From the NCBI GenBank assembly GCA_002269645.1, contig NIVC01000878.1, positions 1 to 43,812 of the forward strand: DNA of 43,812 bases. The letters are read 5' to 3'. Of the stretch, positions 11,429 through 40,252 are shown one piece after another. The first letter of the stretch is position 1, and the number at the start of each line of letters is the position of its first letter. Made by a program: the position numbers and the translations under genes. Below the pieces are notes generated by a model. It was given only the letters and a program-made list of their open reading frames with translations. It did no database searches and was not told the origin of the DNA. This DNA is from Macrostomum lignano. Lineage: Eukaryota.

Positions 11429-14400
11429 ATGCCTCTCTGCAGGATTCTCTGTACTGCTCCGATCCTGAGCTGCCTGATCTGCGCCGCTCTCTGCCGGGAG
11501 TTCCAGATCTCGGACCTCGGCTGCTTTGTTGACCACACAAATGGCGTGCAGAGAGACGTCGGTGGCATGAAGAACATTGGCCTCACACGGATCGGCAGCT
11601 CCGAGGTATCTCAGATATACGATTCTATCAACTGCGGCCAGATGACTCGCGAGCTGTGCAGCAGCGCCTGCGCTCTGGGCGGCTTCCAGTTCGCGGCTCT
11701 GCAATCGACATACTGGTGCTTCTGCGGCAACTCCTACGGGTCGCAGGGCGCTGCTCCCGACTCGGACTGCTTTCTTGCCTGCAGTGGAAACTCGGGCCAG
11801 AACTGCGGAGGTGATTGGCGAAACCGGGTGCTCCGGCTGAGCTACACCAACGGTGAGTTGCTGCTGCTGGTGGCCTCTTGTTCAGCATCTGTTAGTAGTA
11901 TGGGTTAGCAGAACCCTGCCGAACAGTGCGGAGATAGGAGACTCCGGAGACAGAAAGGCGATGGGCGGAGGTGAGGTGGTGCAAGGAGTTGGGGTGGGTG
12001 GGCAGAGTGGCGGGTTGGAGGTGAGGCCGGTGCAAGGAGGGAGGTGGGTCGGCTGAAAGTTAGCAGAACGCTGCCGAACAGTGCGGAGATAGGAGGACAG
12101 AAAGGCGATGGGCGGAGGTGAGGTGGTGCAAGGAGTTGGGGTGGGTGGCAGAGTGGCGGGTTGGAGGTGAGGCCGGCGCAAGGAGGGAGGTGGGTCGGCT
12201 GAAAGTTAGCAGAACGCTGCCGAACAGTGTGGAGATAGGAGGGCTGAAAAGGCGATGGGCGGGGTGGAGGTGAGGCCGGCGCAAGGAGGGAGGTGGGTCG
12301 GCTGAAAGTTAGCAGAACGCTGCCGAACAGTGCGGAGATAGGAGGGCTGAAAAGGCGATGGGCGGGTGGAGGTGAGGCCGGCGCAAGGAGGGAGGTGGGT
12401 CGGCTGAAAGTTAGCAGAACGTTAGTTAGCAGAACGCTGCCGAGCAGTGTGGAGATAGAAGAGCGAGCGTACGGGGTAGGGGGGGCAAGTCAGAGTGTGG
12501 GGTTGGTTGAACTGGAGAAATTGGAGAGGCCCAGCGCGCCTAGCGTGGGGTTGGTCGGTCAGGTGGAAGGCAAGCACTAAGCAGCACCTCCCTGTGGAAT
12601 ATTATTGATACAAAATGTCTGAGAAAGTTTGGGGAATTTTAGGGGGTGGGGCTGGGTATAGATAACAGAACCCGTTAGTGCGGGGAGGGTGGGGGCTTCC
12701 AGAAGGGCGAAAACAAAAACAACTCAGTCTGCGAAAACTTTTGGTATTGCAGCACTGAATTAAATTTTTAGTTCCCACAAACATGTTTACAACCGCAATG
12801 TTTTACAAAGAGCATATAAATGTACAGCCAGACTAAGATCGCCAATCGTAAAGGGGGGTTTGAGCTGGGGGGGTGGGGGCGATATGAGGGTTTGGGTTTG
12901 GGTGTGTGGGGTTCGCAATGGGGGATATTGTCAACGTATACTATAAAACTAATAAAAATAAATACAATTAAATATTATGAAAAAATATTTTCCCTAATCA
13001 ACCCCCGTCTGATGCTTCTAAAAAAAGATAAATAGCACGGCCCCCGCTCCTCCCTGCGTCTTAGAAGCCTCGAAGAATATTTGAAGCCCATTTAATTTTT
13101 TCCTTAAATAGAAATTTAACCGCTAAAATGAAAGCAAAAAGCAGCAGCTCTACTCAATTTGACGTTTGCCTGACCTGCAACAAAGTTGTTTTGGGTCAGC
13201 TATCGGACCGACATGATAGCTGCAGTGGAAGAAGCTCATGGTTGGTCTGCTGGCAATGCGGGATGATAAAGAAGAATGTGGCCAAGGCGAGAGGACTGAA
13301 AACCCACTGTGGTCATCTACAGCTGCCCAGTGGTGACAATGGCATGCGCAACCTGAGGCGAATGGTGATGCAAAAAGCTCGGCAACTGGCGGCAGATAGG
13401 GAGGCAACTCGGCAGGCTTTAAGCCAAGTTATCGAGGAGGTGAGAGAGGCCTGCAGCAACAGCGATGACGACTTTATTGTTCAGCCAAGTCGGCAGCAGG
13501 ATGTAGTTGAGCGGCCAACTGGCTCTCATCGTCGTCGTCCTGAGATCAAGGGCAAGACTCTCCGAATTGATGACCCGCATATCAGCGACATCTCGGAGGA
13601 GGAAGACGTGGACCTCGATAGTAAGGATGAGGAGGATTTCGGCAAAGAAGTCACCACCGGCACCTCCATCCAGCAGATCGTCTCCGCTCAGCTGCCCGCC
13701 GAGATGCAGCAGACCGGCTCCGCTCAGCTGCCCGCCGAGATGGAACTGCCTGGCTCCGCTCAGCTGCCCGCCGAGATGGAACTGCCTGGCTCCGCTCAGC
13801 TGCCCGCCGAGATGGAACTGCCTGGCTCCGCTCAGCTGCCCGCCGAGATGGAACTGCCTGGCTCCGCTCAGCTGCCCGCCGAGATGGAACTGCCTGGATC
13901 CGCTCAGCTGCCCGCCGAGATGGAACTGCCTGGCTCCGCTCAGCTGCCCGCCGAGATGCAGCAGACCGGCTCCGCTCAGCTGCCCGCCGAGATGGAACTG
14001 CCTGGATCCGCTCAGCTGCCCGCCGAGATGGAACTGCCTGGCTCCACCCAGCAGCAGCAGCAGCTCGTTGACCTTCTTGCTGGGTTAGAAGATGGTGAAC
14101 TATTAGAGGTGCAGCAGCAGCAGCAGCAGCAGCAGCCAAACAATGTAGCCGAGAATGTTGTGAGTAGCTGGCAAGGAGGACTGCAACTCATTTTGCCACC
14201 AATTTCTGGTGGTGGATATGCGATGTATTTTGAGGGAAATTCAATTAGATTTGTCCCTTTGTAATTGTTCAGCTGGCTTCCTGATTTCATCATTCCCCTA
14301 ATAACTTCCTCTGATTGCTTTTAACAGCTAATTGTATCATTTTATGCTTATGGTTCATCCAGCTATATAAAAGACAAAATCACTTTTGTTATATTGAATA

Positions 14401-17400
14401 AGAACTGTTGAATTAGAAAGCGAAATGAAAGACTGGAATCTTCTTTATCTTTGGATAAAAAAGTCCTCTTGTTGTTTTTTATTTTAAAAAACTTTAACTT
14501 ATGTTTAACTAGTAATCTTTCAGAATCGCTGTATAGCAACTTAAAAATTAAAAAGTGCATCAAATGCAAATTTGAAATATTCTACATATTCGAACACGAC
14601 AAAATCATTCTAAAATATTAAAAAAATTAATTTCAGCTTGAGCCCACTATCTCCTGTAACACTTCCCAAAGTGGGAATAGCTCGGTCGACTGGAGTGAAT
14701 CAGAGAATGAAAATTGGAGTGAGTCTGATGTTCAAACAGGCGACTGGAGTGAATCAAACGGCTCAGAGATTGACTGGTCTGAGACTGACTCCAATTCGAA
14801 TTTCTCAGATAGTGATTCTTCTGCATCAGAGTTTGAAGTCATCCAGTCAGCAAATCACTCCAGTGAATCCAATCAAGTTTCGGTATCTGGTGTAGCAATA
14901 ACTCCGGTCAACAGCAGAGTTGACAGCATCAACAGCTGCAGATCTGAACAGCCTGGTGAGTATTTGAAATTTTAACAAAAATAAATGGTGATATTAAAAC
15001 CAACTTTTTAGCACAAGCAAATATTAAGTTCAACAGCAATAGCTAAAAGTGAAATTTAACGAATTTTTAAACTCAACTAGCACACGTGCATAGTAGGTTT
15101 GAAATTATGAAAATAATTAAAAAATGATGTACATATCTTTTCGCAGATGCAGCGGATGTTCAAGTTATCAGAGCACACAATGGTGTTCTAGAAGTTTTGC
15201 GCTTCACTCCAAGACAAGAAGCACTCGAAGCACTCGCTTTTGTCAGAGCATGCAAAAATCTGGTGAGGCAAGCACTTTCTGATAGGCTGACAGACTCTAA
15301 CCTACTAGTTCGTGCGCAGTTGCGCCTCAACGTGCGGATGAAACGAATTAAAGGTGGAGAGGTAATTTCGGAAGAAGATAAATGGATTAGCAGCTGTCTA
15401 GAGGAACTGAATTCAATTGAAGACTTCGACGATTGGTGGGTTCGCCAAGTAGGAGCCTGTGAGCGAATAATTGATTGCCTAAACACTAATGGTAGTGGTT
15501 GGACCCTTGATGCTGCCAATGTCTTGGATGTCTGTGTTTCTCAAGGGGATCGAATTCGGTTTTACATTGGTCGAAGCAAAAAATTTGTCTTGCCAGAGGT
15601 GTTGAAGCGGAAGAAAGCCGTTATAAATGCCCCAAGTGATGGAGACAACTGCTTTATCTATGCCTGTCTTGCGGTTCTTCATCATGGTTCTGAGACTTTG
15701 CGAAAGTCGCCTCATTTAGTATCAACGTATGCACTTTGGCTGGGTGATATCAATATGGAAGGAATTTCGCTGCCGGTCACTTTAAGCGAATTGTCTGCCA
15801 TCGAGAATCAAAATCTAAACTTTTGCTTCACTGTGCTGACATGGGTGAGAGGTCACGTGGAAGTATTGAGGCAACCGAAAGTTAAAGTAGCGACTGGTAG
15901 GCGTGTGATTCCACTGCTGTATCTGCAGTGCGAAGAGGGAAAAAGCACCAATCACGCTGACAATGACGAAGAAGATGATGAAAGTATAACATTCGAAGGT
16001 CACTGGTGTAGCATTGTTAATTTGAATCGTCTTCTAAATAGCAAGGATGGTCTTCACCAACGGAAATGGTGCGAGCGGTGCCTGTCAGGCTTTCGTTCTC
16101 AGGAACGACTTGAGAAGCACAGACAGGATTGCTACCAAAGTGATGACTGTACTGTTCGAGAGGTGATGCCAAGTGCCGACAAGAATACTCTAGAATTTAC
16201 CAACTGGCAAAATACAATATCGCCTCCTTTTGTTGTCTACGCTGATTTCGAGGCTTTTAATTCCCCTTGCTCTAAGTATGAGGATAAAGAAGCTTCAGCA
16301 GGCGTGACTGAACTCGACAAATCAGCGTTCGAGAATTCTGGTGCCCCGTCCCGAGATGGTGGAACAGTGTACCTGACAGAGCACCTCCCTGCCGCTGCTG
16401 GATACATTCTTCTCCAACGAGAAGACACAATTGGTCCTCGATTGCGAGACAGAAACGCTAGTTTGCAAATTTTTAATGAGAGCGCGTCTGAAAGCTGCGT
16501 TGAAAAGTTTTTGCACTCGCTTGAAGAAGTTTCCAGAGAAGTCTATTCGTGGAACAAAACGCATAGCCATCAACCTAAAACTGTCACTGCTGAGCATTTA
16601 AAAGCCTTCGATGAGTCGACTACTTGCTTCCGCTGCGGATCGGTTTTCCCAGACCCATCTCAGAAGCACTGGGATCATGACCACTTGACCGGACAATTCA
16701 AGGGGGCTTCTTGTCCTGATTGTAACATGCGATCCCAACTTAAGCGACGCTTTTTGCCGATCCTTTTTCATAACCTAGCAGGCTATGATTGTCATTTGTT
16801 GTTTTCTACAGCTCTAAAGCGAATGACTCACTGGAAAATATCCGTGATTCCTCAGTCGATAGAGCGCTACTTGTCTCTAAGAGCCGAATTCGTTGTAGAC
16901 ATTGTTGAAATTCAGGGTCGCCAGAAGCCAGTTACATTTAGTCTGCAATTTTTAGACTCGCTTCAGTTTTTAAACTGTAGTCTTGATAACCTGATGCGAA
17001 ACATGCTAGCAAGTGAGTGTAACGTGACAATGCAAATGCGCAACGCGTTCCCAAATGTCTCTGAGGAAATTCTTCTTAGCAAGGGTATTTTCCCTTACGA
17101 CTATATTCAAAGCACTTCTGACTTGCAAACTACCGCGCTGCCAGATCAGAATAGTTTCTTCAACTCACTGACAAAGACGGAGTGTAGTGATGCTGACTAC
17201 AGTCGCGCTCAGCGAGCATGGTGCCAATTTAATTGCCAGAACCTTGGAGATTACATGAATCGCTACCTAGAACTAGACATTCGCCAATTGGCCGATGTCT
17301 TTGAGTCCTTCCGCAAGTTGAGTCTGCAAGACGATAGCTTGGATCCTCTCCATTACATAACTACACCAGGTCTATCGTTTGATTCTGCTCTAAAAAACAC

Positions 17401-20400
17401 CGGCGCAAAGTTAGAGCTGCTCACTGATGTGGATATGTATCGAATGTTTGAGCGAGGTATTCGTGGAGGCATAACTTTTACTAATGTGCATCAAGCTCAA
17501 GCATATGAGAAAGTAGATGATGATGAAAACTTCATTGCTCTTGATCAGCCTCCAAAAAGTGCTGCTTTAATTCCATTGGATGTCAACAATTTGTATGGTG
17601 TTGCGCTCTCAATGCCTTTGCCTACAAGTGGTTTCAAATGGGTTGAGAACCAGACAATTGAGGAGTGGACTGCTGAAACATTCTTATCCTTAACTGAAGA
17701 CTCACCCATCGCCTATCTAGTCGAGCTTGACTTACTTTATCCAGACGAACTTCATAGACAGACAGAAGACTTACCATTTGCACCTGAAAAAGGAAAAGTT
17801 GATTACAACGAATTTCCCGAATTCATGAAAGAACTCTGGAGCCAACTTCAGCTGAATGTAGACCGTCCGTATCATCCTTGCCAAAAGCTACTTCTAACAT
17901 GCTACGACAAAGAGCGCTACGTAGTACACTCGAACATACTCAAATTTTATCTTCAGCAAGGGATGAAGATCAAGAAGATTCATCGGGCGATTGCCTTCTC
18001 ACAAGAGCGTGTATTTGAGCCCTACATTAGAAAAAATAGTGAGTGCCGATCGGCCGCTACCAGTGATTTTGAGCGAAATTACTACAAGCTGAAAAATAAC
18101 TCTTTGTTCGGAAAGACAATGGAAAATGTCCGGAAAAGAAAAGATATTCGAATTTGCACAAGCGAAGAACAAGCCAGAATCTTCTGTTCCAAGCCTACGC
18201 TGAAAGACTTCCTAATTGTTAATGAAACAATATCAATATTCCAACTATCGAAGACCAATATCAAGCTTAACCGACCTGTTTATATCGGGCAGTGTGTCTT
18301 AGACAATTCTAAATTGGTCATGTATAACCTCTTTTACTGTGAGCTTAAGTCGCGATTCGAGCAGGTTCCTCATAGCAGATTGAAACTATGTGGAGGAGAC
18401 ACTGACTCGCTGTTTCTATGTTTAGAGAACCTAGATGTTCAAGGTTACGTGCTACCAGAAATGATTAAAGCCGGATTGCTAGACACAAGCAACTATCCTG
18501 ATGGTCACATTCTTAAGTCTAACAAACTGAAAGCAAGGCTTGGCTGTCTGAAGGACGAATCGTCTGGTGCAAAATTTAAGGAGTGGATTCTCCTTCGCCC
18601 AAAGCTTTATTCGATGCTTGCAGATGAAAGCTGCCCTCAGATAAACAAGAAGGTCGCTAAGGGTGTACAAAAATCTGTCGTCCGCAGTGTAATCACACAC
18701 CAGAGCTACCGAGAAGCATTCTATTCTCTCCAAGAGCTAACAGTTCAAGTTCGACGTATCGGCAGCAAGCGTCATCGTGTTTTTACAACTGAGCAGTCCA
18801 AGCGAGCATTGACAGTTTGGGAGGATAAGCGAGCATGGACAGACGCAAAGTCAAGTCTTCCATTTGGTCACTGTGCATTGCGAACCTCTAACTCCCAAGT
18901 ACGGACTCTTAAGCGGCCGACCTACGAAGTGCCTTTCATTGGCAGTCCCAAGCGAGCTAGACTAAATGATTGTTGAATTGATGTTCGTAATTTTAATAGC
19001 TGTTATGCTTTTTAATAAATTTTGCAATATTCTATCGATTGTATCAGTGAATTGATTGCATGTTGTAAAAAGATAGGTTAAACGTACAAATGAAGTTTCA
19101 TGTCTGCTTTTTTTAATAGAGAAACTTACGACCGTAGGTTCTCGTTCTCCATTCTTTTGTTACCCATCAGTTGAATTTGAAGTACTTATTTTTATTGACG
19201 ATTGTTTGTAGTTTTTCTTTAAATAAATTTGTTTGCTTGTGAAATAAAATTCTGTTTCTTTTTCAACTTCTTTTGCATGAGCTTAAATGTTTTTCAGTTT
19301 GACAATAATGTTTTCATATTGCTAGTTTTTCTGTTTGCTTAATTTTTGTTTTCATTGTATCAGTTTTTGCTCTTATCATTTTCATAACGTGAAATAAAAA
19401 ACCAAGCACAATATGCTCAATTCCAAGCAAAATTTACCGATGCACAGAATTTGACTTTTTAGTTTATTTTTACTGAGACTGGAAAACTAGTTTGCGCAAA
19501 CGCATACAGGCAGTTCGCAATTGTGCCATTGACCGAGCACCACTTAATACAAATGAGCCACTATGAAATAGAAGACATTTGCAACAACTGACATCAAAAA
19601 TTAACGCAGAAAAAGACTCAGGTTCATATTCAGCTTTTGGAATTTTCTTTGACAAGTCCAGCAAAGATAATGCAGAGCCTATTGAAAGTTGACCATGCGC
19701 AGTTATTGTCTTAACTCGAAAACAGATAACTTGAGGAGGCAGCAGTTGAGTCGAAACTCTGCGATGTAGCATAGCCACAAAGCGATGGGCAGCCCTTTTG
19801 GCGTCTGCGTGGGTCTTGGCACCACAGATGCTCAGTTGGCCAGTAGGGTAGAGTAGCAACGTTACTCTGGGAGTCCGCATCCTCTTGATAAGCACTCGGG
19901 GCCAGGCGGGCCGGTAGATCACATGAGCCATGCTGAGAGCCAGTTCCCGTAGAGGCAGCTGAGCGCCCTCGCCCCCATCCAGTTTCAAGTCTACTCCGCC
20001 GACTAGGTTTGTCACTTTTAGAGCTGAACACATTATGATCGGAAATTTCTTCACCAATGCTGCTGTGCCCGCTCTCGTGCCTGCTCTCGTGCCAAGGACA
20101 CTGGTCGCTTCTTAAGCTGATACAGAACTTGGGTCTGAGCCAACTGTAGTACATCAATGCATTCCGCACTGCACACCCGGTGTCTGACTCTTCAACTGAA
20201 GGTGTTCCCAAATCTTCTAGGTTGTGTACCTGTCTGCCAAGCAACTTAGTCAAAAACATCGACTTCTTCGCTCCATTCGTCCAGATAGGACCACTGGTAA
20301 TGTTCAGAGTGTCATCTGCTAGATCCATGTACGGACGGGTTCCATCGTTCCACTTAAGCTTGTGCAAATTCTTTGATAGCCTCTTGTAGTAGAACCGCAT

Positions 20401-23400
20401 CTCAGGTGAAACTCTCTCCCATGGATAAGGGGGAGCGTAGAAGCTTCCTGCTCTGACTTGAACAACAGCAAATTCTTTTATAATATATTCTTTGCTTTCT
20501 CTTTCGCAAGGAAATCCTTGGATGTCAATATAGTTCATATTGAGAAAGATCACTTTGATTTTTAAATATTGTCACTTTGTCTTCTTATATACTTTTCTCT
20601 GGCTCAACCTCAGCCAGGCTGTCTTGCTTCCTAGTCCCTTGACTATATCCTGCTGCTCTTTTTTCAATTCAGCCCCTGCCGAGTCACTCACTAGTGATAG
20701 TTGGTTTTTAACTGATTTCCCGATTGCCGAAACTGGAACATTCAGCTGCTTTCGCTGTAGTAACCAAAAAAATTCATTCCACCCAACTGGTTCACTCCCA
20801 CCTACTGAATCCCTCACTGCGTGTTGAACTAAGTCCAGTATGTTTGAGCAAGGAATCGATGTGCCTGAAATTTCCACCTCTCCATTTCCCAAAACTTGAA
20901 TCAATTCAGGCTTGTCTGACAGGCTTGCCCATAGACTGCGGGCCCTGGTCTTGAATTTCTGAGGCACTGATTTGCTGATCTTCTCCTCCCAGTTGTTCTG
21001 CGGCAGATCTGCTTTCATCGTCTTTGCTTTAGCTTTGCTCTTTGTAGCTTCTTCCTCTGCTTGCTTGCGCTTGGTCAAAACACTCTGCATTGCATTCTGA
21101 TACATGTTTCTTTTTACTTCTGCGGGATAATCCTCAGTATACAAGATATCATCACATTTTTGCTGGGCATGCTTTAAACTATATTCGCTTGCAGACTCAG
21201 TCGGCTTCAAATTCTGCATCAGCATGTCATACTCGGACTTGGAGATCAGAACCATTTCGGTGAATTTGTTCATCTTCTTTCTTTTTCTTGACGAGCTTTA
21301 ACAGAATAGGTAGAATTTTTATGAATGCAGCATTGCACAAGTCTTCTTTCCTTCTTTGAGTTGTAATTCTTCGAATTATGTGTCTCGACTTAACCAAAAC
21401 TGCCTTTTCAGTAAGCGAGAAAGACAAGTTGTTTTCCAATAGATTGTAGCAGGCCTCGGCAAGAAAATTTCTCACTTCTCTTGGGCCGCGCTTTATTAGT
21501 ACGCGCTTAAAGCTAACAGTATATTTTGATGACGCAAGAATTACAAAAATGTTTCTATGCAATTCAAGAGCTTCCATTTTTTGAGAAAAAAGCTTACAAA
21601 GCAACGGAGCTATTCTTAAGCATAGACAAGATGGGGTCGCTGGTTGGGTAAAATTCTAGCTCGCACTCGCAGCTCATCAGGAGTTGATGGATGAAAATCC
21701 AGAAACAGATAGGCTCCCCTTCCCTGTGCTGTTACATGCCTGAACACTGAAAGCAGAAAGCCGGGTTTTTCTGTAAAGCACTGCCTGCCCAGTGCTGCAA
21801 TCTGCAGCTGGTCTCTGGGGTTTTTCAAGATAGCTAAATACATTACATTCAAGCTCATTGTTCGCGACTCTTTTCCCTTGAAAAATATATTCTGAGTCAG
21901 CATCACCAAAAAGCACGGCAAGTGATGTGCGATTCCTGTGAAAAAATTTCGCATTGAAGCAGAATTCGAAGTTTCCTCTATTAAGTCATCGAAAACAACC
22001 AGGTCATTGGGCCTAAGTGCTGCCTCGATGTTGGTGGGAAATCCCTGGCGCAGCTGCACACCTAGGTTGCTCAATTCTGTATGGCCTGCCTGTGAGATCC
22101 CATAGTACCACAGAACTCTGCCAGGCTTCACATCAAACATGGCGTCTCTGTACTGGATCAGGTGTTTGACAAAGGTTGTTTTTCCTGCATTGGTGGGCCC
22201 GCAGACAATCATGCAGCTTCCCTGTCTGAGGCGGATATCGTAGCAAACTCGCTTTTCTCCCATGTCTAATGCATAAATATAGTTCTAGAACATCTTTTTC
22301 TTAAGTTGGCTTCAAACCTCTGTAAGATTCTATCATTCAAATGATTTTTTTCATTAGCATGCAAATGCTTCAAAATCCCCTCAAATGACCGATTGAACAG
22401 AAACTTTTGATAAGCAAAATAGATGCAAAACATTCCGCATTTATTAGAGTTAGCACATTGAAATCTGTTTATATTGCTTCGGAGCCAAAAGCCAGTTGTT
22501 TTAATCTCTCGAAACAAATTATAAACCACAGATAAAATTTCAGGTTCCCAGCCGAGGGAGTTGAACAGCTCAATGCAATTTCCTTGTCCAACATAGCACA
22601 CCACCCAATGACCAAATGAGCCATTGTGCTGTAGTAGAACAAAAACAAACTTATTTTCAAGGGAAATTGATCGATATTTTCTTTTTAGGCTCAAAGGCAA
22701 AACATTTTTATAGCGTAAATGTAAAGTAATGATGAGAAATTTTCGGCAAGACAAAAATTTTCTGGCGAGATTAAGTAGTTGAATTGCGTCCATGCCAATT
22801 AAGAGGAATAGTCCAGCAAAAGCTCCCGGTGCTTGGTGACCTCAATCAGCGAGTCATACAGGCACAGAGCGATCAGGGACACCGCTTCGTCCAGAGCCTG
22901 TCGGAAGCGAATCTCCAGCCGCAGGTTGCCCTCCTTCTGTCCGTACCACAGAGCCGCTCTCTCTGGTGTGAGATCGAATGCAAACACCGTGTTGTTGTTG
23001 GAGAAGAGCTGGTAGGGGATCCACGGGACCGAATTGCTTGCAGATTGACAGCTTTTCAGGTAGTGCAAGTATTCTCTTACAAAGGAATTGTTTTCAGGTG
23101 TGAAGGCGCCGTGGCACACGGTCTCTCCACCTTTCTTTAGAGCCAACCGGCTGAGGTTGAAGCTCTGGAACTGGAACGGACTCGCGTGATGATGACCGTT
23201 GAATGCTCGGTGGCTCACGAAGGCCAGCATGATGAACTTCGGCAATTTTCCATGAGTGAATCCTTCAATGTTTTTAGATTGAATGCCCTGGGGTAGGATG
23301 AAGTTCTGCATTTCAGTTCGCTCGATGGGATACAGTGCATTTTGGTTTGTCAGCCCCTGCTCGTGAGCCAGGCTGATGTGGGGCACCACTTTGACTCGGC

Positions 23401-26400
23401 GAAGATGAAGAATGCTGTGAGAGATTTCCATGCGATAAGCCGCGTTGTTTACATTCGGGGTTCTGATGGCAAAGGCCCCATCGCTGGGACCAGTTTGATG
23501 TGCAAGTGCAGATTGCTTAGCAGAAACACTGGGCACTGGAAAACATCGCTGAAGAGCGGCCCCGCATACTCCATCCATCGGGATTCCCTGTGGCTCTCCG
23601 TGTGCTCTTCAGCTGCAGAGTCCGGCTCCAGGAAGCCAGCAGGGTAAAGTTTTAGTTGCTGGGCATCAGATGAGCTCATTAGTGCTTTGAAGTACGCATG
23701 GTAGGGATAGAGCTGGTCTCCACCAGACACCACTCGCTGGTTAATGCTCACAATTACATCTGAGAAGGCTGTAGACAAAACAAAGTTTTCTGGGTGCACA
23801 TCACTGTCTCTGCGCTCGGTGATGATGCCATCTCCATCTCGAACATCCTCCCTCAGCAAACCCCCATCCAGTCTCACAAGGCGGCAGCGAATATAAAGAA
23901 AAGAATTAAGCAGATCTGTGTATTCATCGGCAGATTGGTGGCAGTCAAATTCAATGGGAGAATTTGCAGTAATGGAATTTACTGGGTGAATATCAACATA
24001 AGTAGCTTTTTCAATGCAGGTTTGTAGAACGGGCGTCTTTAATAAATCAAGTCTGGGATTGAATCCGTAAGCCATGTCTATGACAGAGTCGAGCACGCGT
24101 TTCACAGTTTTCTTGCTGACTTTTTGCTGTCGCTTTCCTCCGCCTGCTCTATTCTTCTTTGCTTTCGTCTTCCGATTCTTAAGCTTTTTCCTACTAGCCT
24201 TGCTCGGCTTTCTTCCATTGGACCTCTTATTGAGGCGATCGCCACCAGTTGCCTTTCGGGTGCGCTTCTTCTTCTTCAATCGTTTCGGACTTGCTTCAGC
24301 ATTTCTTTTGCGCCTGACATTGCTAAGCGTTGAGGATAATGATGTAGCCGCTGGAGGAGGCTGGTATGTCATGATCCCAGGGAAGCTCCCACAGCCATTG
24401 AGTGCAGGCTTTTCGTGTCCTGTCCTCACCCCCGAATATTGCTGTATTAGCTGCTGGTAGTTCATTGAATGCGTTTCTCCCGAATCTGAACTGTGAGCAG
24501 AACAGGGCTGTGAGTCTGTGCAATCAGTGGGCAACCATAGATGTCCCGCAGCTGAACTCGAATGCTGTGGAGAAGACTGATTCGTTGAATCGGGAAGAAT
24601 ATTGTTTTCTTAAATATTTTTGTTTGATAGTTGCCCCATTCAATGCCAGCTTTCATTCCAACTGTTCTCAACAAGGAGCCCCAGTTGCAATTAGTTGACT
24701 CAATGATACTGCAGTGCACATTGATTAAGCTGGTGCGCGGGCAGCCAATGCAATGCTCGGACACGCGGCTCCCTGGCTGGATTTTCACAGCCTGGTTTCC
24801 GAATCCCAGCCAATGCAGAATTTTGCTGGATGGGAGAAACAGCTCTGCTCTCGTAGTGTTGTTGTGCACCACAGTTCGTGAGTTGCGGATTTCGAACTTC
24901 ATACCAAATTCCCTGTTGCCACTACGCCCCATCAGGCCGGACTCATCAGCCTCCATCTCAGACTCCCTGTCACTCATCGCATCAAAGAACAGCGAATCAG
25001 AGTTGGCCAGCAGCTCATTCAGGCGCTCCACCAGCTCCTCCACTCTAGCAAAGCGTCCGGGTTGAAGAACCAGGGCCTCATGCTCTCTTCCATCTGAGAC
25101 AGTGAAGCAGTAAGGCTCGTCAACATTGAACCATGCAGCAGGCAGATGGATTTCAGCCAGACCTGCCTCATAGTCCACATTTCGATCCAAGTAAATAGGT
25201 GAAGACAGGTAAAAATTAAAGTCACTAGGAGTACCTTCAGCATGCTCACTGTTAATCAAAATAGTTCGCATTATAAAGATAAACTTCATGATGAGGGATG
25301 TGCCAAAGCTAAACCTTTCTTAAGTCTTTTTCATCCACCCAGCCAGTCGAATCGTAGCCGGCCCATTTCACCAGATAGCGAATTTTTCCCTTCCGCTTCT
25401 CCGTTTTCAGGATCTTCTCAATCACATACAGGCGCTGTGAGTCCGGGACAGCCTGCAGCTCGTGCTCATGGAAGAGTCCTCGAATCTCTTCCCCCCGCAT
25501 GTCTTTAATCTTGTACATGTAGGGATAATGTTTTGGGGCTCTGCTCACCACGGTGTACACTTCCTCACTCCAGCTCGCTTTGTATCCCTTTTTGAATAGC
25601 CGTGGAGCATTGGAAATTCTCACTGACTGGTTTTCAGCGAACTTAGGCTTCCTTAATTTTTCTAGAGTCTCGGCTGCTTTTCCATCGTACAGGTTCATCC
25701 ACACTTCAGATTCATTCTCTTTGCAGACACTAGTGGGTGCCATTTTGATGCTTCTGTGGTAGGTATTGTTGTAAGATTTTACCAGCTTAGGCAGCACATC
25801 AAGCCAGTGCAGTGTGCTCTTGTAGGTGAAGTAGCGCCACATTCTGCTTTTCAGAGTCCGATTCCATCGCTCAATGACAGCCGCCTTCTGCTCGCTGTTA
25901 GTTGGGAAAGCCAGAATCCCTCTGTCAATGCAGTATTGACGGAAAGTGGAGTTGATAAATTCCTTCCCCTGATCTGTGCGAACTGTGCGTGGCTGGCGCT
26001 TTGAACTTCTCAGTATGCTCTCGAATGCTGACTTCACTTCTGTAGCAGTTTTATTTTTCAGTGCCTTGGCCCAAGCACACTTTGACAGTACGTCAATACA
26101 TGTGAGAATATATTTGTAGCCTTTATTATACTTTGCGAATGGAATCATTTTTACCAAGTCAAGTTCCCACTGATCATCGATAGCCCGCACTATGATTGGG
26201 GCCCTTGGATATCGCCTTCTAGCTGGCTTGTGTAGGGTGTGCACTGGCTGCTCACTGAGCCACTGTTCTATGCACTTAGTGGATTTGCGATCTCCTCTTC
26301 TCCTAACTTCATTCAACAGTTTAGAAGCACTAGAAAAACTAGCCGGCTGTTGTGGGTCAAAGTAAATTTTTTCCATCCTCAAATGAAAAAGAACCAGATG

Positions 26401-29241
26401 TACACAGGTATGTTTTTCTTAAGAACAACGATTGGCGTTTTAAAAGACAGGTTTTATTCCAATATTAAACTCATACAGCGTACACTTATTATATTTTTTT
26501 AACTTAGGGACTGCGAACAGTTAGTGATCTTAAAAAGAAGATTGCAGGAAATAGTAACACTGAGTAGTGCAAATAAGTATAAATTGCATGCATTTAAGTA
26601 TAAACTTGGTTTGTTAACACCTGAATAAATAAGACTAAACGGTTACGACAATTGTCAAAACTTAACTTAGCTGAATAAAATTAGACAAAGGCAAACCAAA
26701 CTGAATTATCCTTTGAGTCTCATCAGTCTCATCCAACCTCCAGCTCAGTCTTCAAAACGCAGCTTAGACACCTTCATTGTCTCCTGCCTGCGCAGAGGAT
26801 ACGGCAGTTTCCGCTTTCGATTGTTCTCCACCTCAGCGGCATGAGCCCGGAATCGGTACCACACCGGATCCTGCTGTAGGTCCGTGTCCTCCGCCGGGAT
26901 GTTCCCAGTCGATGTGCCGGCTCTGGCCAAAGGTGTGGAAGTCACAGCCTCGATGTCGGTTGTCAGCTCCGATGGTGAGCCGACCTCCTCCTCGCCTTCA
27001 GCAGCCTCAGTCTTGACCGGCAGTATGAGGGTGGCGTCTTCGTCCTCATCTTCGGATGAGCTCAGCTCGTACTTCGCCCCCGCACCTTGGTAGGGCTCTG
27101 ATAGCTGCTGGTCTATCCAGTCCGAAGTCTGCCACAGCTTCTACCAGAGCTTCGGAGACAGTGGCACGGTGTTGCGCTTCATAAATTCATCACAGCAGTC
27201 CTCAGGCAGCCGCTTTAGCCAGATGAGGCCATCCTTGACTTGAACAAATTTGTCGAAGCCCAGCTTGATGACCTTGAGCTCGTTGTTCAGAGCCGACTTC
27301 ACCAGGGAGCGCTTTAACTCCTTTAGCTTCGTCCACTGCTGCACATTCAGGTTGAAGCCAGGAACACCAGGCTTGAGGCTTGCTGTGCTGCCATGTCGGT
27401 AAAACTTCCTGATCGCGATGTATTTCTGGCCTTCGAATTCTTGCACCTGCACTCTGTAACCTTCACTAATATCCATAGTTCACACAAAATCACTTCGAAA
27501 ACTTGTGAAATCGAATTCAAGAAAAAAATAGATTTACCGTTGAATTTAAAAAATCGGGGGCTTATATACCCTCAAAGCGGAGTGGGGTGGGTGTCAGAAT
27601 GAGCACCCACCCAATTTTTTGCTTATTCGGCATCAAGCAGCGGCTGCTCGTCAGCATCAGCCACACAAACCGTTGCAAAGTTTATTGCTCATTTATTAAC
27701 AATGCCAGTGCGCCTAGAGCTCACCTCTGTCCCTGCACAGTGAAAGTGCGGCAGAGTTGAACAGCTGTTTTAGAGCTCACCTCTCTGTCCCTGCACAGTG
27801 AAAGTGCGGCAGAGTTGAACAGCTGTTTTAGAGCTCACCTCTCTGTCCCTGCACAGTGAAAGTGCGGCAGAGTTGAACAACTGTTTTAGAGCTCACCTCT
27901 CTGTCCCTGCACAGTGAAAGTGCGGCAGAGTTGAACAACTGTTTTAGAGCTCACCTCTCTGTCCCTGCACAGTGAAAGTGCGGCAGAGTTGAACAACTGT
28001 TTTAGAGCTCACCTCTCTGTCAATTTGTTTACTCTGCTATTCCAAAACCTTCCGATTCTTTGCTTTGCTACCTGCCTCCCCCACCTGACCGACCAACCCC
28101 ACGCTAGGCGCGCTGGGCCTCTCCAATTTCTCCAGTTCAACCAACCCCACACTCTGACTTGCCCCCCCTACCCCGTACGCTCGCTCTTCTATCTCCACAC
28201 TGCTCGGCAGCGTTCTGCTAACTAACGTTCTGCTAACTTTCAGCCGACCCACCTCCCTCCTTGCGCCGGCCTCACCTCCACCCCGCCCATCGCCTTTTCA
28301 GCCCTCCTATCTCCGCACTGTTCGGCAGCGTTCTGCTAACTTTCAGCCGACCCACCTCCCTCCTTGCGCCGGCCTCACCTCCACCCCGCCCATCGCCTTT
28401 TCAGCCCTCCTATCTCCACACTGTTCGGCAGCGTTCTGCTAACTTTCAGCCGACCCACCTCCCTCCTTGCGCCGGCCTCACCTCCAACCCGCCACTCTGC
28501 CCACCCACCCCAACTCCTTGCACCACCTCACCTCCGCCCATCGCCTTTCTGTCCTCCTATCTCCGCACTGTTCGGCAGCGTTCTGCTAACTTTCAGCCGA
28601 CCCACCTCCCTCCTTGCACCGGCCTCACCTCCAACCCGCCACTCTGCCCACCCACCCCAACTCCTTGCACCACCTCACCTCCGCCCATCGCCTTTCTGTC
28701 CTCCTATCTCCGCACTGTTCGGCAGCGTTCTGCTAACTTTCAGCCGACCCACCTCCCTCCTTGCGCCGGCCTCACCTCCAACCCGCCACTCTGCCCACCC
28801 ACCCCAACTCCTTGCACCACCTCACCTCCGCCCATCGCCTTTCTGTCTCCGGAGTCTCCTATCTCCGCACTGTTCGGCAGGGTTCTGCTAACCCATACTA
28901 CTTCTGTTATTTACATGTTCAATTGGATTTTGTCTAGAGTCAAACTAAGTTTAGGCAGAATATCAAATTCCTTCAAATTAATCTTCCGAATCGAAGGTAA
29001 CAACTTCTTCGTCAGCGGCAACCGGACCTTCGTCGAACTCAACATCCCTGATGCGCCGAACTTTACGACTGTGAGCGCTTCAAGTCGGGTCCATTGTGCG
29101 TATCTGTGCTCCAGTAAAAGTTCCGGTTGCCAGGCGGTGATCTTCAGCCAGCAGCAGCGCCTGTGCCACCTGCTGGAGTTCGCTGCGGTCCCGGCCGCCT
29201 TCAGCAGCGCCAGCAGCGGCGACTTCTTTGTCCGTGGCTGA
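11429..29241 (+). CDS. Secreted WSC-domain + PAN/Apple-domain protein, copy A (two exons; intron contains the Maverick)
   Basis: Exon 1 is 11429-11852: signal-peptide-like N-terminus, WSC motif LGCFVD...MTRELCSSAC...FAALQ..YWCFCGN...C..ACSGN..QNCGG, donor G|GTGAGT. Exon 2 runs from about 28955 or 28997 to 29241: PAN-like CAYLCSSKSSGCQAVIFSQQQRLCHL. The exact acceptor is uncertain. Confidence 0.8.
11894..12566 (+). repeat. Left terminal inverted repeat (673 bp)
   Basis: Two ~150-bp and two ~103-bp units, each starting GTTAGCAGAAC(G/C)CTGCCGAACAGTG, then a unique inner segment ending GTCAGGTGG. Confidence 0.95.
13128..14264 (+). CDS. Maverick ORF1: Cys-rich N-terminus, acidic region, 10 x 12-aa repeat and poly-Q; possibly exon 1 of pPolB
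   Basis: 378-aa ATG ORF; CLTC...CWQC...HC pattern; 36-bp repeat at 13683-14042 (SAQLPAEMELPG); consensus donor GTGAGT at 14160 in phase 0. Confidence 0.75.
   Translation: MKAKSSSSTQFDVCLTCNKVVLGQLSDRHDSCSGRSSWLVCWQCGMIKKNVAKARGLKTHCGHLQLPSGDNGMRNLRRMVMQKARQLAADREATRQALSQVIEEVREACSNSDDDFIVQPSRQQDVVERPTGSHRRRPEIKGKTLRIDDPHISDISEEEDVDLDSKDEEDFGKEVTTGTSIQQIVSAQLPAEMQQTGSAQLPAEMELPGSAQLPAEMELPGSAQLPAEMELPGSAQLPAEMELPGSAQLPAEMELPGSAQLPAEMELPGSAQLPAEMQQTGSAQLPAEMELPGSAQLPAEMELPGSTQQQQQLVDLLAGLEDGELLEVQQQQQQQQPNNVAENVVSSWQGGLQLILPPISGGGYAMYFEGNSIRFVPL
14637..14955 (+). CDS. Predicted internal exon of the pPolB gene (Ser/acid-rich, WSES repeats)
   Basis: TTTCAG acceptor; stop-free frame LEPTISCNTSQ...DWSESENENWSESDVQTGDWSESNGSEIDWSET...RSEQP; donor G|GTGAGT at 14956; AT-rich intron to TTTCGCAG at 15146; joins in frame to the polymerase ORF. 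Confidence 0.7.
15147..18976 (+). CDS. Protein-primed family B DNA polymerase (pPolB), main exon
   Basis: Motifs YADFE (ExoI), C2H2-like CERC...KHRQDC, endonuclease-VII-like DHDHLTG...CPDCN, HNLAGYD (ExoII), KGIFPYDY, YLELD..QLADVFE (ExoIII), LDVNNLYG (motif A), KLKNNSLFGKT (motif B), GDTDSL (motif C), KLYS and KGV. Uninterrupted. Confidence 0.97.
19470..20033 (-). CDS. TATA-binding-protein (TBP)-fold protein encoded by the Maverick, 187 aa
   Basis: Two TBP repeats. Repeat 1: VTNLVGGVDL...LRELALSMAHVIYRP...IKRMRTPRVTLLLYPTGQLSICGAKTHADAKRAAHRF. Repeat 2: YEPESFSALIF...LLFHSGSFVLSGARS. These are colinear with canonical TBP NIV...LKTIAL...YNP...[25 protein letters not shown] and YEPELFPGLIY...IFVSGKVVLTGAK. 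Confidence 0.9.
   Translation of the reverse strand: MCSALKVTNLVGGVDLKLDGGEGAQLPLRELALSMAHVIYRPAWPRVLIKRMRTPRVTLLLYPTGQLSICGAKTHADAKRAAHRFVAMLHRRVSTQLLPPQVICFRVKTITAHGQLSIGSALSLLDLSKKIPKAEYEPESFSALIFDVSCCKCLLFHSGSFVLSGARSMAQLRTACMRLRKLVFQSQ
19711..20538 (-). CDS. Maverick-associated DEDD/DnaQ-like exonuclease-fold protein with a C-terminal run-on overlapping the TBP gene
   Basis: N-terminal ~135 aa YIDIQGF...IIKEFA...HKLKWNDG...NGAKK..FL...VHNLEDLG.P...CAVRN...W resembles a small protein recurrent in arthropod-type Mavericks. The remaining ~140 aa look like an out-of-frame shadow of TBP. Confidence 0.6.
   Translation of the reverse strand: MNYIDIQGFPCERESKEYIIKEFAVVQVRAGSFYAPPYPWERVSPEMRFYYKRLSKNLHKLKWNDGTRPYMDLADDTLNITSGPIWTNGAKKSMFLTKLLGRQVHNLEDLGTPSVEESDTGCAVRNALMYYSWLRPKFCISLRSDQCPWHESRHESGHSSIGEEISDHNVFSSKSDKPSRRSRLETGWGRGRSAASTGTGSQHGSCDLPARLAPSAYQEDADSQSNVATLPYWPTEHLWCQDPRRRQKGCPSLCGYATSQSFDSTAASSSYLFSS
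20572..21273 (-). CDS. Conserved Maverick hypothetical protein
   Basis: 233-aa ORF; MVLIS..EY start and the IPCSNILDLV...EPVGW..F..LL...NVPVSAIG pattern recall a recurrent Maverick gene found next to the ATPase module. Confidence 0.7.
   Translation of the reverse strand: MNKFTEMVLISKSEYDMLMQNLKPTESASEYSLKHAQQKCDDILYTEDYPAEVKRNMYQNAMQSVLTKRKQAEEEATKSKAKAKTMKADLPQNNWEEKISKSVPQKFKTRARSLWASLSDKPELIQVLGNGEVEISGTSIPCSNILDLVQHAVRDSVGGSEPVGWNEFFWLLQRKQLNVPVSAIGKSVKNQLSLVSDSAGAELKKEQQDIVKGLGSKTAWLRLSQRKVYKKTK
21227..21577 (-). CDS. Small basic Maverick protein (putative virion core protein)
   Basis: Basic ~116-aa ORF with EACYNLLENNL...L...RHIIRRI...FIKILP pattern, in the position usual for a small conserved gene downstream of the ATPase. 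Confidence 0.6.
   Translation of the reverse strand: MEALELHRNIFVILASSKYTVSFKRVLIKRGPREVRNFLAEACYNLLENNLSFSLTEKAVLVKSRHIIRRITTQRRKEDLCNAAFIKILPILLKLVKKKKEDEQIHRNGSDLQVRV
21616..22263 (-). CDS. A32/FtsK-like genome-packaging ATPase
   Basis: Walker A GPTNAGKT, Walker B VVFDDL, then HH...LTQNIF...R..SLN..YL...KNPRD..QI..LGRQ. Confidence 0.95.
   Translation of the reverse strand: MGEKRVCYDIRLRQGSCMIVCGPTNAGKTTFVKHLIQYRDAMFDVKPGRVLWYYGISQAGHTELSNLGVQLRQGFPTNIEAALRPNDLVVFDDLIEETSNSASMRNFFTGIAHHLPCFLVMLTQNIFFKGKESRTMSLNVMYLAILKNPRDQLQIAALGRQCFTEKPGFLLSVFRHVTAQGRGAYLFLDFHPSTPDELRVRARILPNQRPHLVYA
22266..22793 (-). CDS. Adenain-like cysteine maturation protease
   Basis: GHWVV (His), ELFNSLG, and FQC.NSNKCGMFC (oxyanion Gln and catalytic Cys). 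Confidence 0.88.
   Translation of the reverse strand: MDAIQLLNLARKFLSCRKFLIITLHLRYKNVLPLSLKRKYRSISLENKFVFVLLQHNGSFGHWVVCYVGQGNCIELFNSLGWEPEILSVVYNLFREIKTTGFWLRSNINRFQCANSNKCGMFCIYFAYQKFLFNRSFEGILKHLHANEKNHLNDRILQRFEANLRKRCSRTIFMH
22799..24075 (-). CDS. Major capsid protein (double jelly-roll), split by a 1-nt frameshift near 23487
   Basis: LDLLKTPVLQTCIE..TYVDIHP...SPIEF...YTDLLNSFLY start; restoring one C in GTCCCAGC joins it to SILHLRRVKV...YPIER...GKLPKFIMLAFV...FNG...PFQF...FAFDLTP...NLRLEIRF, giving 425 aa. Confidence 0.9.
24076..24465 (-). CDS. Lys/Arg-rich core-like protein reading in frame into the MCP
   Basis: ATG overlaps the mCP stop (ATGA); 130 codons dominated by K/R; LNGCG matches an adenain cleavage consensus; no stop before the MCP ATG. 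Confidence 0.75.
24462..25289 (-). CDS. Minor capsid protein (penton, single jelly-roll)
   Basis: NSEH...TPSDF...L..PIYL...YEAGLAEIHLPAAWFNV N-terminus and INVHCSII...LLRTV...FPI...I.VQLRD..G C-terminus, typical of Maverick pentons. Confidence 0.85.
   Translation of the reverse strand: MKFIFIMRTILINSEHAEGTPSDFNFYLSSPIYLDRNVDYEAGLAEIHLPAAWFNVDEPYCFTVSDGREHEALVLQPGRFARVEELVERLNELLANSDSLFFDAMSDRESEMEADESGLMGRSGNREFGMKFEIRNSRTVVHNNTTRAELFLPSSKILHWLGFGNQAVKIQPGSRVSEHCIGCPRTSLINVHCSIIESTNCNWGSLLRTVGMKAGIEWGNYQTKIFKKTIFFPIQRISLLHSIRVQLRDIYGCPLIAQTHSPVLLTVQIREKRIQ
25309..26376 (-). CDS. Retroviral-type (rve) DDE integrase with C-terminal chromodomain
   Basis: WELDLV (D), RTDQGKEF (D), AVIERWNRTLK (E); chromodomain YVIEKILK...RYLVKWAGY...WV. 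Intact. Confidence 0.96.
   Translation of the reverse strand: MEKIYFDPQQPASFSSASKLLNEVRRRGDRKSTKCIEQWLSEQPVHTLHKPARRRYPRAPIIVRAIDDQWELDLVKMIPFAKYNKGYKYILTCIDVLSKCAWAKALKNKTATEVKSAFESILRSSKRQPRTVRTDQGKEFINSTFRQYCIDRGILAFPTNSEQKAAVIERWNRTLKSRMWRYFTYKSTLHWLDVLPKLVKSYNNTYHRSIKMAPTSVCKENESEVWMNLYDGKAAETLEKLRKPKFAENQSVRISNAPRLFKKGYKASWSEEVYTVVSRAPKHYPYMYKIKDMRGEEIRGLFHEHELQAVPDSQRLYVIEKILKTEKRKGKIRYLVKWAGYDSTGWVDEKDLRKV
26745..27476 (-). CDS. PC4/Sub1-like ssDNA-binding coactivator with acidic tail, interrupted by an in-frame TAG at 27141-27143
   Basis: RVQVQEFEGQKYIAIRKFY...KPGVPGFNLNVQQWTKLKE parallels PC4 VSVRDFKGKVLIDIREYW...KPGRKGISLNPEQWSQLKE. The frame stays open after the TAG until the TGA at 26745. 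Confidence 0.82.
27561..27568 (-). promoter_or_regulatory. TATA box upstream of the PC4-like gene
   Basis: TATATAAG on the minus strand, ~85 nt upstream of ATG 27476, in GC-flanked context. Confidence 0.5.
27716..28021. repeat. 58-bp subterminal tandem array, 5.3 copies
   Basis: AGAGCTCACCTCTCTGTCCCTGCACAGTGAAAGTGCGGCAGAGTTGAACA(A/G)CTGTTTT at 27716, 27772, 27830, 27888, 27946 and a partial at 28004. Confidence 0.95.
28081..28902 (-). repeat. Right terminal inverted repeat (822 bp)
   Basis: Reverse complement of the left TIR with three long and two short units. Confidence 0.95.
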
Positions 29242-39809: not shown

Positions 39810-40181
39810 CGCGGACAGTCTGGAGCTCATCCGCGGCAAAACCGGACGGCTGTGCGGCCACCTGGTGTCCCTGCTCATGGTGCAGAAGTCCTTGCCCAGC
39901 GCCTTCAACAAGGACCTGCAGGAGGACAAGGAGGGCTTGTTCGACTCAGCTGACACCGTGTCAGCCGTGGTTCGAATCGCCGACGGTGCACCCGGAGGCC
40001 TGCGCCGGCGCCCTCAGCTGCGACATGCTGGCCACCGACCTGGCCTACTATTTGGTGCGCCGCGGGGTGCCGTTCAGGGAGGCCCACGCCGCCTCCGGGC
40101 GTTGCGTGGCGCTGGCCGAAGCCAAGGCGTGTCAGCTGCACCAGCTGACCTTTGAGGACTTCCGGACTGTCAGGTGAGCAG

Positions 40182-40252
40182 CTGACTGACTGACTGACTG
40201 ACTGACTGACTGACTGACTGACTGACTGACTGACTGACTGACTGACTGACTG
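40182..40252. repeat. (CTGA)n microsatellite, part left of the BEL insertion
   Basis: Direct reading. Confidence 0.95.

Follow-up and report, generated by a model that had tools for sequence, protein, structure and literature searches.

A conserved TBP-like protein and a candidate matching promoter box in Polintons of the flatworm Macrostomum lignano

How animal Polintons express their virion genes, and whether they need a helper virus for it, is a question without an answer in the literature that we searched. It is raised anew by a stretch of 43,812 nucleotides from Macrostomum lignano (contig NIVC01000878.1 of a 764-Mb assembly; hereafter the window), which carries a Polinton of 17,009 bp (positions 11894-28902) with genes for a TBP-like and a PC4-like protein. 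A preliminary description had taken these two as a candidate basal transcription module that brackets the virion genes. Our analysis suggests that they have separate tasks: the TBP-like protein would read a variant promoter box for the late genes, and the PC4-like protein would be an early single-stranded DNA (ssDNA)-binding protein (SSB) for replication. Judging from sequence and predicted structure, we give this reading a probability of roughly 55%. The TBP together with its conserved variant box is the strong result, and the pairing of TBP with PC4 is the weaker one. The element itself is a Polinton by its AGTAGT ends at 11894 and 28902, its long terminal inverted repeats (TIRs; 11894-12566 on the plus strand, beginning with AGTAGT, and 28081-28902 on the minus strand) and a 6-bp target-site duplication, TCTGTT (11888-11893, with the identical 6-mer at 28903-28908). 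Furthermore, both a protein-primed DNA polymerase B (pPolB) and a retroviral-type integrase were detected with Pfam, and a packaging ATPase and an adenain-like protease gave Pfam matches below the cut-off, both genes being conserved across families.

The TBP-like open reading frame (ORF; 19470-20033, minus strand) is intact and encodes 187 amino acids, without an N-terminal extension. It matches the Pfam family PF00352 over two repeats (E 2.4e-26), and its AlphaFold model (predicted local distance difference test score, pLDDT, 92.4) shows the saddle built from these repeats that characterises the TBP family. The best solved match of the model in Foldseek was human TBP (1cdw; E 1.2e-14, template modelling (TM) score 0.81). 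The gene has at least 152 matches in the M. lignano genome, and its product shares 28% identity with that of the host's own TBP gene (contig C70). We compared Polintons of families that we number 1 to 4, the window copy belonging to family 1. Family 1 was sampled at 40 ATPase-anchored loci, namely the 20 best after the window and 20 lower-ranked ones (19 from the 84-87% subfamily), and family 2 at 20 loci from the family-2 range, with ~9.9 kb per locus in both sets. A quick tree with 156 rows grouped the TBPs of family-1 and family-2 elements and two metagenome proteins in a single clade (Shimodaira-Hasegawa-like approximate likelihood-ratio test, SH-aLRT, 97) on a long branch, separate from the host TBP and the host TRF2; fragments, fusions and rows with fewer than 120 aligned residues were left out, and the long branches make the deeper placement unsure. 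The element TBP is conserved under purifying selection, with ratios of non-synonymous to synonymous substitution rates (dN/dS) of 0.15-0.32 in 5/5 subfamily pairs. A stray host gene was considered as well and was rejected, as the TBP gene lies within the element at 38/40 loci and its product forms a clade of its own.

Which DNA such a protein could read was judged from its contact residues, given here in yeast numbering and compared in four element variants. The equivalents of E188, F190, F207 and V71 were retained in 4/4 variants. On the other hand, F99, F116, V122, T124, N159 and V161 were altered in 4/4, and four of these positions reach the same residue: all variants carry F99P, F116Y, N159T and V161T, together with a serine or threonine for V122, while T124 is a cysteine in the element TBP. 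The canonical DNA face, with its four intercalating phenylalanines and its Asn, Val and Thr contacts, is not retained, and only F190 and F207 remain of the phenylalanines. E186 and E188 belong to the stirrup that binds TFIIB, and this acidic loop is kept on the TFIIB side, as YEPE in families 1 and 2 and as YDAE in family 4. P191 is replaced in the TBPs of families 1 and 2. A passage in PMC1636458 suggests that P191 enforces the T at position 1 of TATA, and describes the N-terminal repeat as contacting the 3' half of the TATA box. Given these residues, normal binding of canonical TATA boxes by the element TBP is unlikely.

A candidate for another target is the motif WTAAGAA, which was chosen by eye from the window and its sister copies, so that the window statistics are post hoc. 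Between 19400 and 27700 it occurs eight times in sense and once in antisense orientation; shuffled sequences gave a mean of 1.85, and 0/300 shuffles reached eight. All eight sense boxes of the minus-strand arm lie 34-148 nt upstream of a gene start. In the sister copies, sense boxes fell between -160 and -8 of a start in 150/169 cases in subfamily 1A (antisense, 4), 110/121 in subfamily 1B (antisense, 0) and 83/87 in family 2 (antisense, 0); these start windows make up ~20% of the span, and the copies are not independent of each other. Loci with fewer than five located starts or a span above 8.5 kb are left out of these totals and of the counts per gene. Motif discovery upstream of the element's genes had been proposed earlier, and it bore the box out: when all 6-mers were ranked in an unsupervised way with one copy per lineage, TAAGAA came first in the window (8/10 starts), in 1B (8/10) and in family 2 (5/8), and TAAGCA came first in family 4 (6/9 starts). 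Many boxes fall inside the coding frame of the upstream gene. Leu-Arg pairs are spelled TTA-AGA in 13/34 cases near starts versus 1/80 elsewhere, an excess which indicates that the constraint acts on the DNA.

The TBP gene is itself preceded by a box in family 1 (TTAAGAA at 20109-20115, minus strand, 82 nt upstream of the start in the window), which was present in 38/38 family-1 copies scored. The family-2 TBP gene instead has a canonical TATAAAAG (15/16). A box before the putative major capsid gene was found in 19/19 copies of subfamily 1A, 0/15 of 1B and 13/14 of family 2. The box consensus is H-W-T-A-A-G-A-A; in TATA register, T3-A4-A5-G6 is fixed and positions 1 and 2 are variable, with family-1 boxes beginning with C or T. 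This pattern would fit the loss of P191 and the altered N-terminal repeat.

Box and TBP were also followed into more distant families. Family 4 has a very divergent TBP (L124:2315-2932 on contig C4619; 72 genome matches) together with the TAAGCA box. This protein is only ~19% alike to the other element TBPs and lacks a Pfam match of its own; it was recognised with an hhalign probability of 92.8 to the TBP alignment, and two relatives at 66-70% likeness clear the Pfam TBP cut-off, which a third narrowly fails. It lies within 13 kb upstream at 45/59 family-4-type ATPase loci. In the AT-rich family 3, neither TBP nor PC4 was found in one element (~25 kb with a 1.5-kb gap), and no TAAG word was among the top five 6-mers of one copy. 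Genes of family 3 (contig C506; L114, L116 and L117) mostly have a run of A right before the ATG (TAAAATG, AAAAATG), which recalls the late starts of cytoplasmic viruses.

The second gene in question, encoding the PC4-like protein, lies at 26744-27476 (minus strand). In the window an early stop (27141-27143) ends the frame (27141-27476) at codon 112, and the nearest sister copies have ~244 codons. The protein has an N-terminal PC4 domain (PF02229, E 6.6e-10 across residues 2-53; E 1.7e-5 to 4usg and 7.7e-5 to 1pcf in the PDB), after which come a further conserved domain of ~65 amino acids and a long tail. In family 1 it begins at the PC4 domain, without the N-terminal part of host PC4, and its tail is acidic (D+E 0.16-0.23). 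Purifying selection acts on the PC4 domain. The aromatic contacts to ssDNA are kept, a Tyr or Phe standing in the W89-like position. The basic RK/KK pair found after PG in the PC4 proteins of human and host is absent, the sequence being PGVPG. A reading of the second domain as a tandem PC4 repeat drew no support from profile comparison, with probabilities of 0.27 against the first repeat and 1.8 against host PC4, compared to 4.4 for shuffled controls, and a single-sequence structure model of the protein reached a pLDDT of 35.7.

The promoter of the PC4-like gene is of another kind. A canonical TATA, TATATAAG, lies at 27561-27568 (minus strand), and its end is 85 nt away from the ATG. A TATAWA sequence within 200 nt upstream was found in 26/27 family-1 and 18/18 family-2 copies despite widely different flanks, and the WTAAGAA box was found upstream of the gene in 0/28 family-1 copies. 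The canonical TATA and the missing box place the PC4-like gene in a different promoter class, which is probably early. As an observation in its own right, about five tandem units of 60 bp lie between this TATA and the right TIR (27720-28030) and are possible upstream regulatory repeats.

Copying of a linear genome by pPolB requires an SSB, as in adenovirus and phi29. Among the genes of the element, no SSB candidate was identified besides the PC4-like gene. PC4-like folds are described as acting in both transcription and DNA replication in parts of PMC7549692 and PMC9600219, the former giving the DNA replication of phage T5 as a case. We prefer a putative role as replication SSB, the simpler alternative of the preliminary description, over that of a partner of TBP.

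The partnership is the alternative that the preliminary description had favoured. Here TBP and PC4 would form a small pre-initiation module, in which early PC4 helps TBP and TFIIB to assemble at the box promoters or to open them, late transcription perhaps being tied to ssDNA from replication. Both genes are indeed retained in two families of different gene order, the PC4 domain is under selection as noted above, and in the passages of PMC9600219 that deal with it Sub1 interacts with TFIIB and needs its ssDNA-binding region for coactivation. At the 40 family-1 loci we found TBP in 38 and PC4 in 32, and both were present in 18/20 family-2 loci. Of the eight family-1 loci missing PC4, one lies at the end of a contig, PC4 is farther away in three and the integrase is missing as well in four. 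The other genes of the minus arm co-occur equally well, however, and the TBPs of families 1 and 2 are one clade by descent, so that the two families count as one event only. Moreover, family 4 has TBP and box, but PC4 was not detected there (one element between its termini, minus 3.2 kb inside the polymerase frame; best score E 0.19, in a reading frame that forms no ORF). Co-occurrence thus holds in families 1 and 2 and breaks down in one direction.

The divergence of PC4 correlated with that of TBP at a Spearman coefficient of 0.50, compared to 0.79-0.87 between TBP and its neighbours, a difference that plain linkage distance also predicts. In one copy pair (1/253 pairs), PC4 was 98% but TBP only 75% alike, which also speaks against a joint module. 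For TBP and residues 1-128 of PC4, complex prediction gave scores of 0.00 and 0.01, which carry no weight either way. We regard a joint module as unlikely. Equally improbable to us is its most far-reaching form, a minimal viral pre-initiation system in which a re-specified TBP on a lineage-specific TAAG-core box is joined by a PC4-derived SSB, coupling late transcription to protein-primed replication; if true, these two proteins would be the counterpart, in a 17-kb endogenous virus, of the six-protein viral pre-initiation complex (vPIC) of herpesviruses. The bracketing of the virion genes by TBP and PC4 was rejected as a conserved layout, the two genes being adjacent and convergent in family 2. 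Separately from these comparisons, one copy with a PC4 99% like that of the window has a TBP only 74% alike (window 21616-27476 versus L044-L089); such mosaic copies indicate that family-1 elements recombine.

The reading that we prefer, with separate tasks for TBP and PC4, amounts to a two-stage programme. Host TBP would start the early genes at canonical TATA boxes, a class that would take in the PC4-like gene as well as the ORF immediately upstream of TBP. The element TBP, with its altered DNA face and kept TFIIB-side loop, would then bind the variant box and recruit host TFIIB and RNA polymerase II. Driven from the box would be the genes for integrase, capsid, core, ATPase and PW and, in family 1, the TBP gene too. 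The PC4-like protein would be made early and act separately, most likely as SSB for strand-displacement synthesis by pPolB. The presence of TBP and box without PC4 in family 4 implies that PC4 is dispensable for the TBP-box system in general; in families 1 and 2 it may still assist. Of the autonomous control of transcription proposed earlier, the general idea is probable, given the conserved TBP and the shared box. Its form as a single TBP-PC4 module found no support, as the family-4 element read almost from end to end lacks a detectable PC4 and the PC4-like gene has a canonical TATA promoter.

Several points weigh against the two-stage programme. F116Y and changes at F99, T124, N159, V161 and P191 are given as DNA-binding nulls of yeast TBP in Table 1 of PMC2265533. 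With several of its altered positions being nulls in yeast, the element TBP should read another sequence or none, and it might bind no DNA whatever. The protease and PZ genes have no box in any copy scored, and the same holds for the capsid gene in subfamily 1B. Some boxes lie close to the ATG, at -11 before the family-2 minor capsid gene (which has a second one at -94) and at -18 and -28 for the family-4 core gene, and a spacing of 11-28 nt is too short for a TATA-type element. It is not obvious that the integrase should be a late gene. The association of TBP and box rests on three lineages having both and one having neither, and a very divergent family-3 TBP could have escaped, the family-4 TBP itself reaching only E 0.041 in the same test. 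As for PC4, the family-2 copy that was checked lacks the acidic tail (D+E 0.05), and the Sub1/PC4 domain itself contains sequences required for coactivation according to a passage in PMC9600219. Finally, wild-type TBP accommodates a G at position 6, as stated in part of PMC1636458, so that host TBP might read the family-2 box, TATAAGAA, unaided.

This last point opens an alternative in which the box is a weak TATA variant for host TBP/TFIID and the element TBP is a decoy or booster that binds TFIIB or inhibitors of TBP and thereby shifts host transcription. Besides the tolerance of host-type TBP for G6, such a role would suit the family-2 boxes, which are mostly of that sequence, and a TBP that combines changes known as nulls in yeast with an intact TFIIB-side loop. 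Family-1 boxes, however, are mostly CTTAAGAA, with three simultaneous departures from TATAAAAG, and G6 is fixed over the lineages, which would not be expected if host TBP were the reader. Family 3, without a detected TBP, shows no such box. In addition, the changes in the DNA face are common to TBPs that are only ~19% alike, which resembles a kept specificity and not decay. We consider this alternative, with its host-read box and its decoy or booster, unlikely.

Still less probable, in our view, is that TAAG serves as an initiator of the baculovirus late type for the RNA polymerase of a helper virus, with a different job for the element TBP. The invariant TAAG core equals the recognition element of the baculovirus RNA polymerase named in a passage of PMC4893493, and the few boxes 11-28 nt from an ATG would agree with this. 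In family 1, however, all distances are at least 34 nt, and bare TAAG is equally frequent on both strands of the window (26 antisense versus 27 sense), the signal requiring AA or CA behind it. The element showed no gene for an RNA polymerase, and we know of no helper virus.

The remaining features of the element place the boxes in their context. From PC4-like to TBP-like, the minus arm holds genes for the integrase, minor capsid, core, major capsid, protease, ATPase, PW and PZ and an ORF of unassigned product, all on the minus strand. The retroviral-type integrase with its chromodomain (25309-26376; PF00665 (rve), 5.7e-13; PF00385, 1.3e-5) has a box 46 nt upstream (26416-26422), and the box of the putative minor capsid gene (24462-25289; no Pfam match) lies 34-52 nt from its start within the integrase frame (25317-25323). 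A basic putative core protein (24076-24465), which has its own ORF in sister copies and is fused into the capsid frame here, is preceded at 148 nt (24607-24613), and the putative major capsid gene (22799-24075), in two frames split near 23470-23490, at 107 nt (24176-24182). The adenain-like protease (22266-22793; PF00770 (C5), E 0.0026) has no box; within its frame lies that of the packaging ATPase, 41 nt from the ATPase start (22298-22304). The ATPase (21616-22263) has a P-loop and matches Pox_A32 (E 0.018), this match and that of the protease being under the curated cut-offs. A PW-like conserved Polinton ORF (21227-21577) has a box at 42 nt (21613-21619), and a PZ-like one (20572-21273) has none. 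The preliminary description of these genes was right for the integrase and is backed by weak matches for protease and ATPase; its capsids gave no Pfam or PDB sequence match among the window ORFs scanned. The capsid labels are our assumption from Polinton motifs, size and position, and the core, PW and PZ labels are presumptive too, without database support. The shortened PC4-like frame and the split major capsid frame indicate that the window copy is defective or carries assembly errors.

The ORF of unassigned product (19711-20538, minus strand; no Pfam match) is preceded at 50 nt by TATATAAGAA (20582-20591, minus strand), a canonical TATA overlapping a box. We take its start to be DEDD-nuclease-like, a label for which no database support was obtained. 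The tail of this ORF and the first TBP repeat overlap in different frames (19711-20033), and the frame of the ORF is open over the first 106-128 TBP codons in 7/7 copies from both families. Beyond the overlap, stops appear in the frame, and the third frame is rich in stops. Synonymous divergence is lower across the overlap, where a genuine overlapping gene or a fusion by frameshift may exist. On the plus strand, pPolB occupies 15338-18976 (PF03175, E 3.6e-18), with upstream exons possibly forming part of its 5' end. The left arm before it (13128-15340, plus strand) contains an ORF whose product of 378 residues has CxxC pairs, a run of acidic residues and tandem repeats, and then short open stretches with splice-like borders towards pPolB. 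It has TATA-like sites at 12815, 12942 and 14364 and a single WTAAGAA at 14398. Outside the element we found a lyase-family exon (PF00206; 3878-4738) and an ORF with DUF1759 and reverse transcriptase (40170-42623), which is presumably a BEL/Pao retrotransposon.

Further observations concern other Polintons and the search for relatives. The family-4 element also has a deoxynucleoside kinase and a dUTPase-like ORF. Its first gene (L124:591-1833) lies behind a canonical TATATAAG, looks spliced and encodes a basic proline-rich tail, with no Pfam match; perhaps it replaces the PC4-like gene without being related to it. Many further pPolB loci exist. At the two that were read (L111 and L112, which did not serve as controls), 10 kb downstream held neither capsid-arm genes nor TBP or PC4, which suggests a capsid-less self-copying class. 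No relatives outside the genus Macrostomum were found in the viral contigs scanned, and of 80 metagenome TBP loci, 25-33% alike, none had an adjoining Polinton gene. The ESM Atlas has PC4 clusters that are rich in molluscs (0.85-0.88), which are leads only, and also TBP clusters, all of them given without context. Four sequencing runs were compared for expression. Three, presumed to be RNA, yielded contigs across the TBP-to-PC4 arm, in a pattern that tracks the high-copy signal of the fourth, a run of unrecorded kind that extends over the entire window. Contigs also run through gene borders and through the TATA of PC4, and the comparison speaks neither for nor against expression. The host TFIIB gene is split by repeat-filled introns.

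If the two-stage programme is true, a dedicated TBP with a matching box would be an autonomous switch from early to late genes and would support a real viral life cycle of these elements. It would also be a natural TBP of altered specificity, in which box and protein covary across lineages (TAAGAA, TAAGCA), useful for studies of TATA recognition and possibly as an orthogonal promoter system. It offers direct handles as well, the protein being small, the box 8 bp long and the copies in the flatworm genome numerous. Full-text searches, which cover subscription journals poorly, found no title or abstract on a TBP-box system or PC4 of Polintons, and TATA, TFIID and PC4 were not found by term look-ups in Polinton papers. 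Earlier annotation of a Polinton TBP or PC4 may nevertheless exist.

Among known systems, the element shares pPolB, integrase, protease, ATPase, TIRs and the 6-bp duplication with Polintons/Mavericks/adintoviruses as described in parts of Starrett et al. 2021 (PMC8502044). A figure legend there on MELD viruses carries a TBP label, and its main text and the one supplement searched hold no mention of PC4. The PC4-like protein shares its domain with PC4/Sub1 and with the phage T5 homologue, in which a passage of PMC7549692 assigns the fold to DNA replication, and it differs from PC4/Sub1 in the N-terminal position of the domain, the second domain with the long tail and the lost RK/KK pair. Like cellular TBP and TRF2, the element TBP has the saddle fold, at a TM score of 0.81 to human TBP, and keeps E188, F190, F207 and V71; unlike them, it lacks an N-terminal extension, has Pro and Tyr for the first-repeat Phe pair and carries N159T and V161T. 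It does not group with the host TRF2/TLF in the quick tree. Giant viruses (nucleocytoplasmic large DNA viruses, NCLDV) encode their own RNA polymerase. Their TBPs include the best viral structure match, that of a Heterosigma akashiwo virus (E 2.7e-12), which is weaker than cellular TBP, with 5-18% identity among the matches listed.

The closest parallel is the vPIC of beta- and gammaherpesviruses, with Epstein-Barr virus (EBV) BcRF1, KSHV (Kaposi's sarcoma-associated herpesvirus) ORF24 and human cytomegalovirus (HCMV) UL87. According to the parts of PMC4893493 on this complex, these viruses also lack an RNA polymerase of their own, encode a TBP-like protein and use a variant TATA at structural genes and the canonical one at early genes, a division that in the Polinton is seen by position only. 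The herpesvirus complex differs in comprising six viral proteins, of which the TBP-like member is ~10% like TBP (same source), and no Pfam families of vPIC homologues were found among the element ORFs scanned. The Polinton instead has a bare TBP core of 187 amino acids, 28% identical to host TBP, and the box WTAAGAA in place of TATT. By analogy, the TBP-box pattern resembles the herpesvirus TATT system in its probable way of working, without being a member of it.

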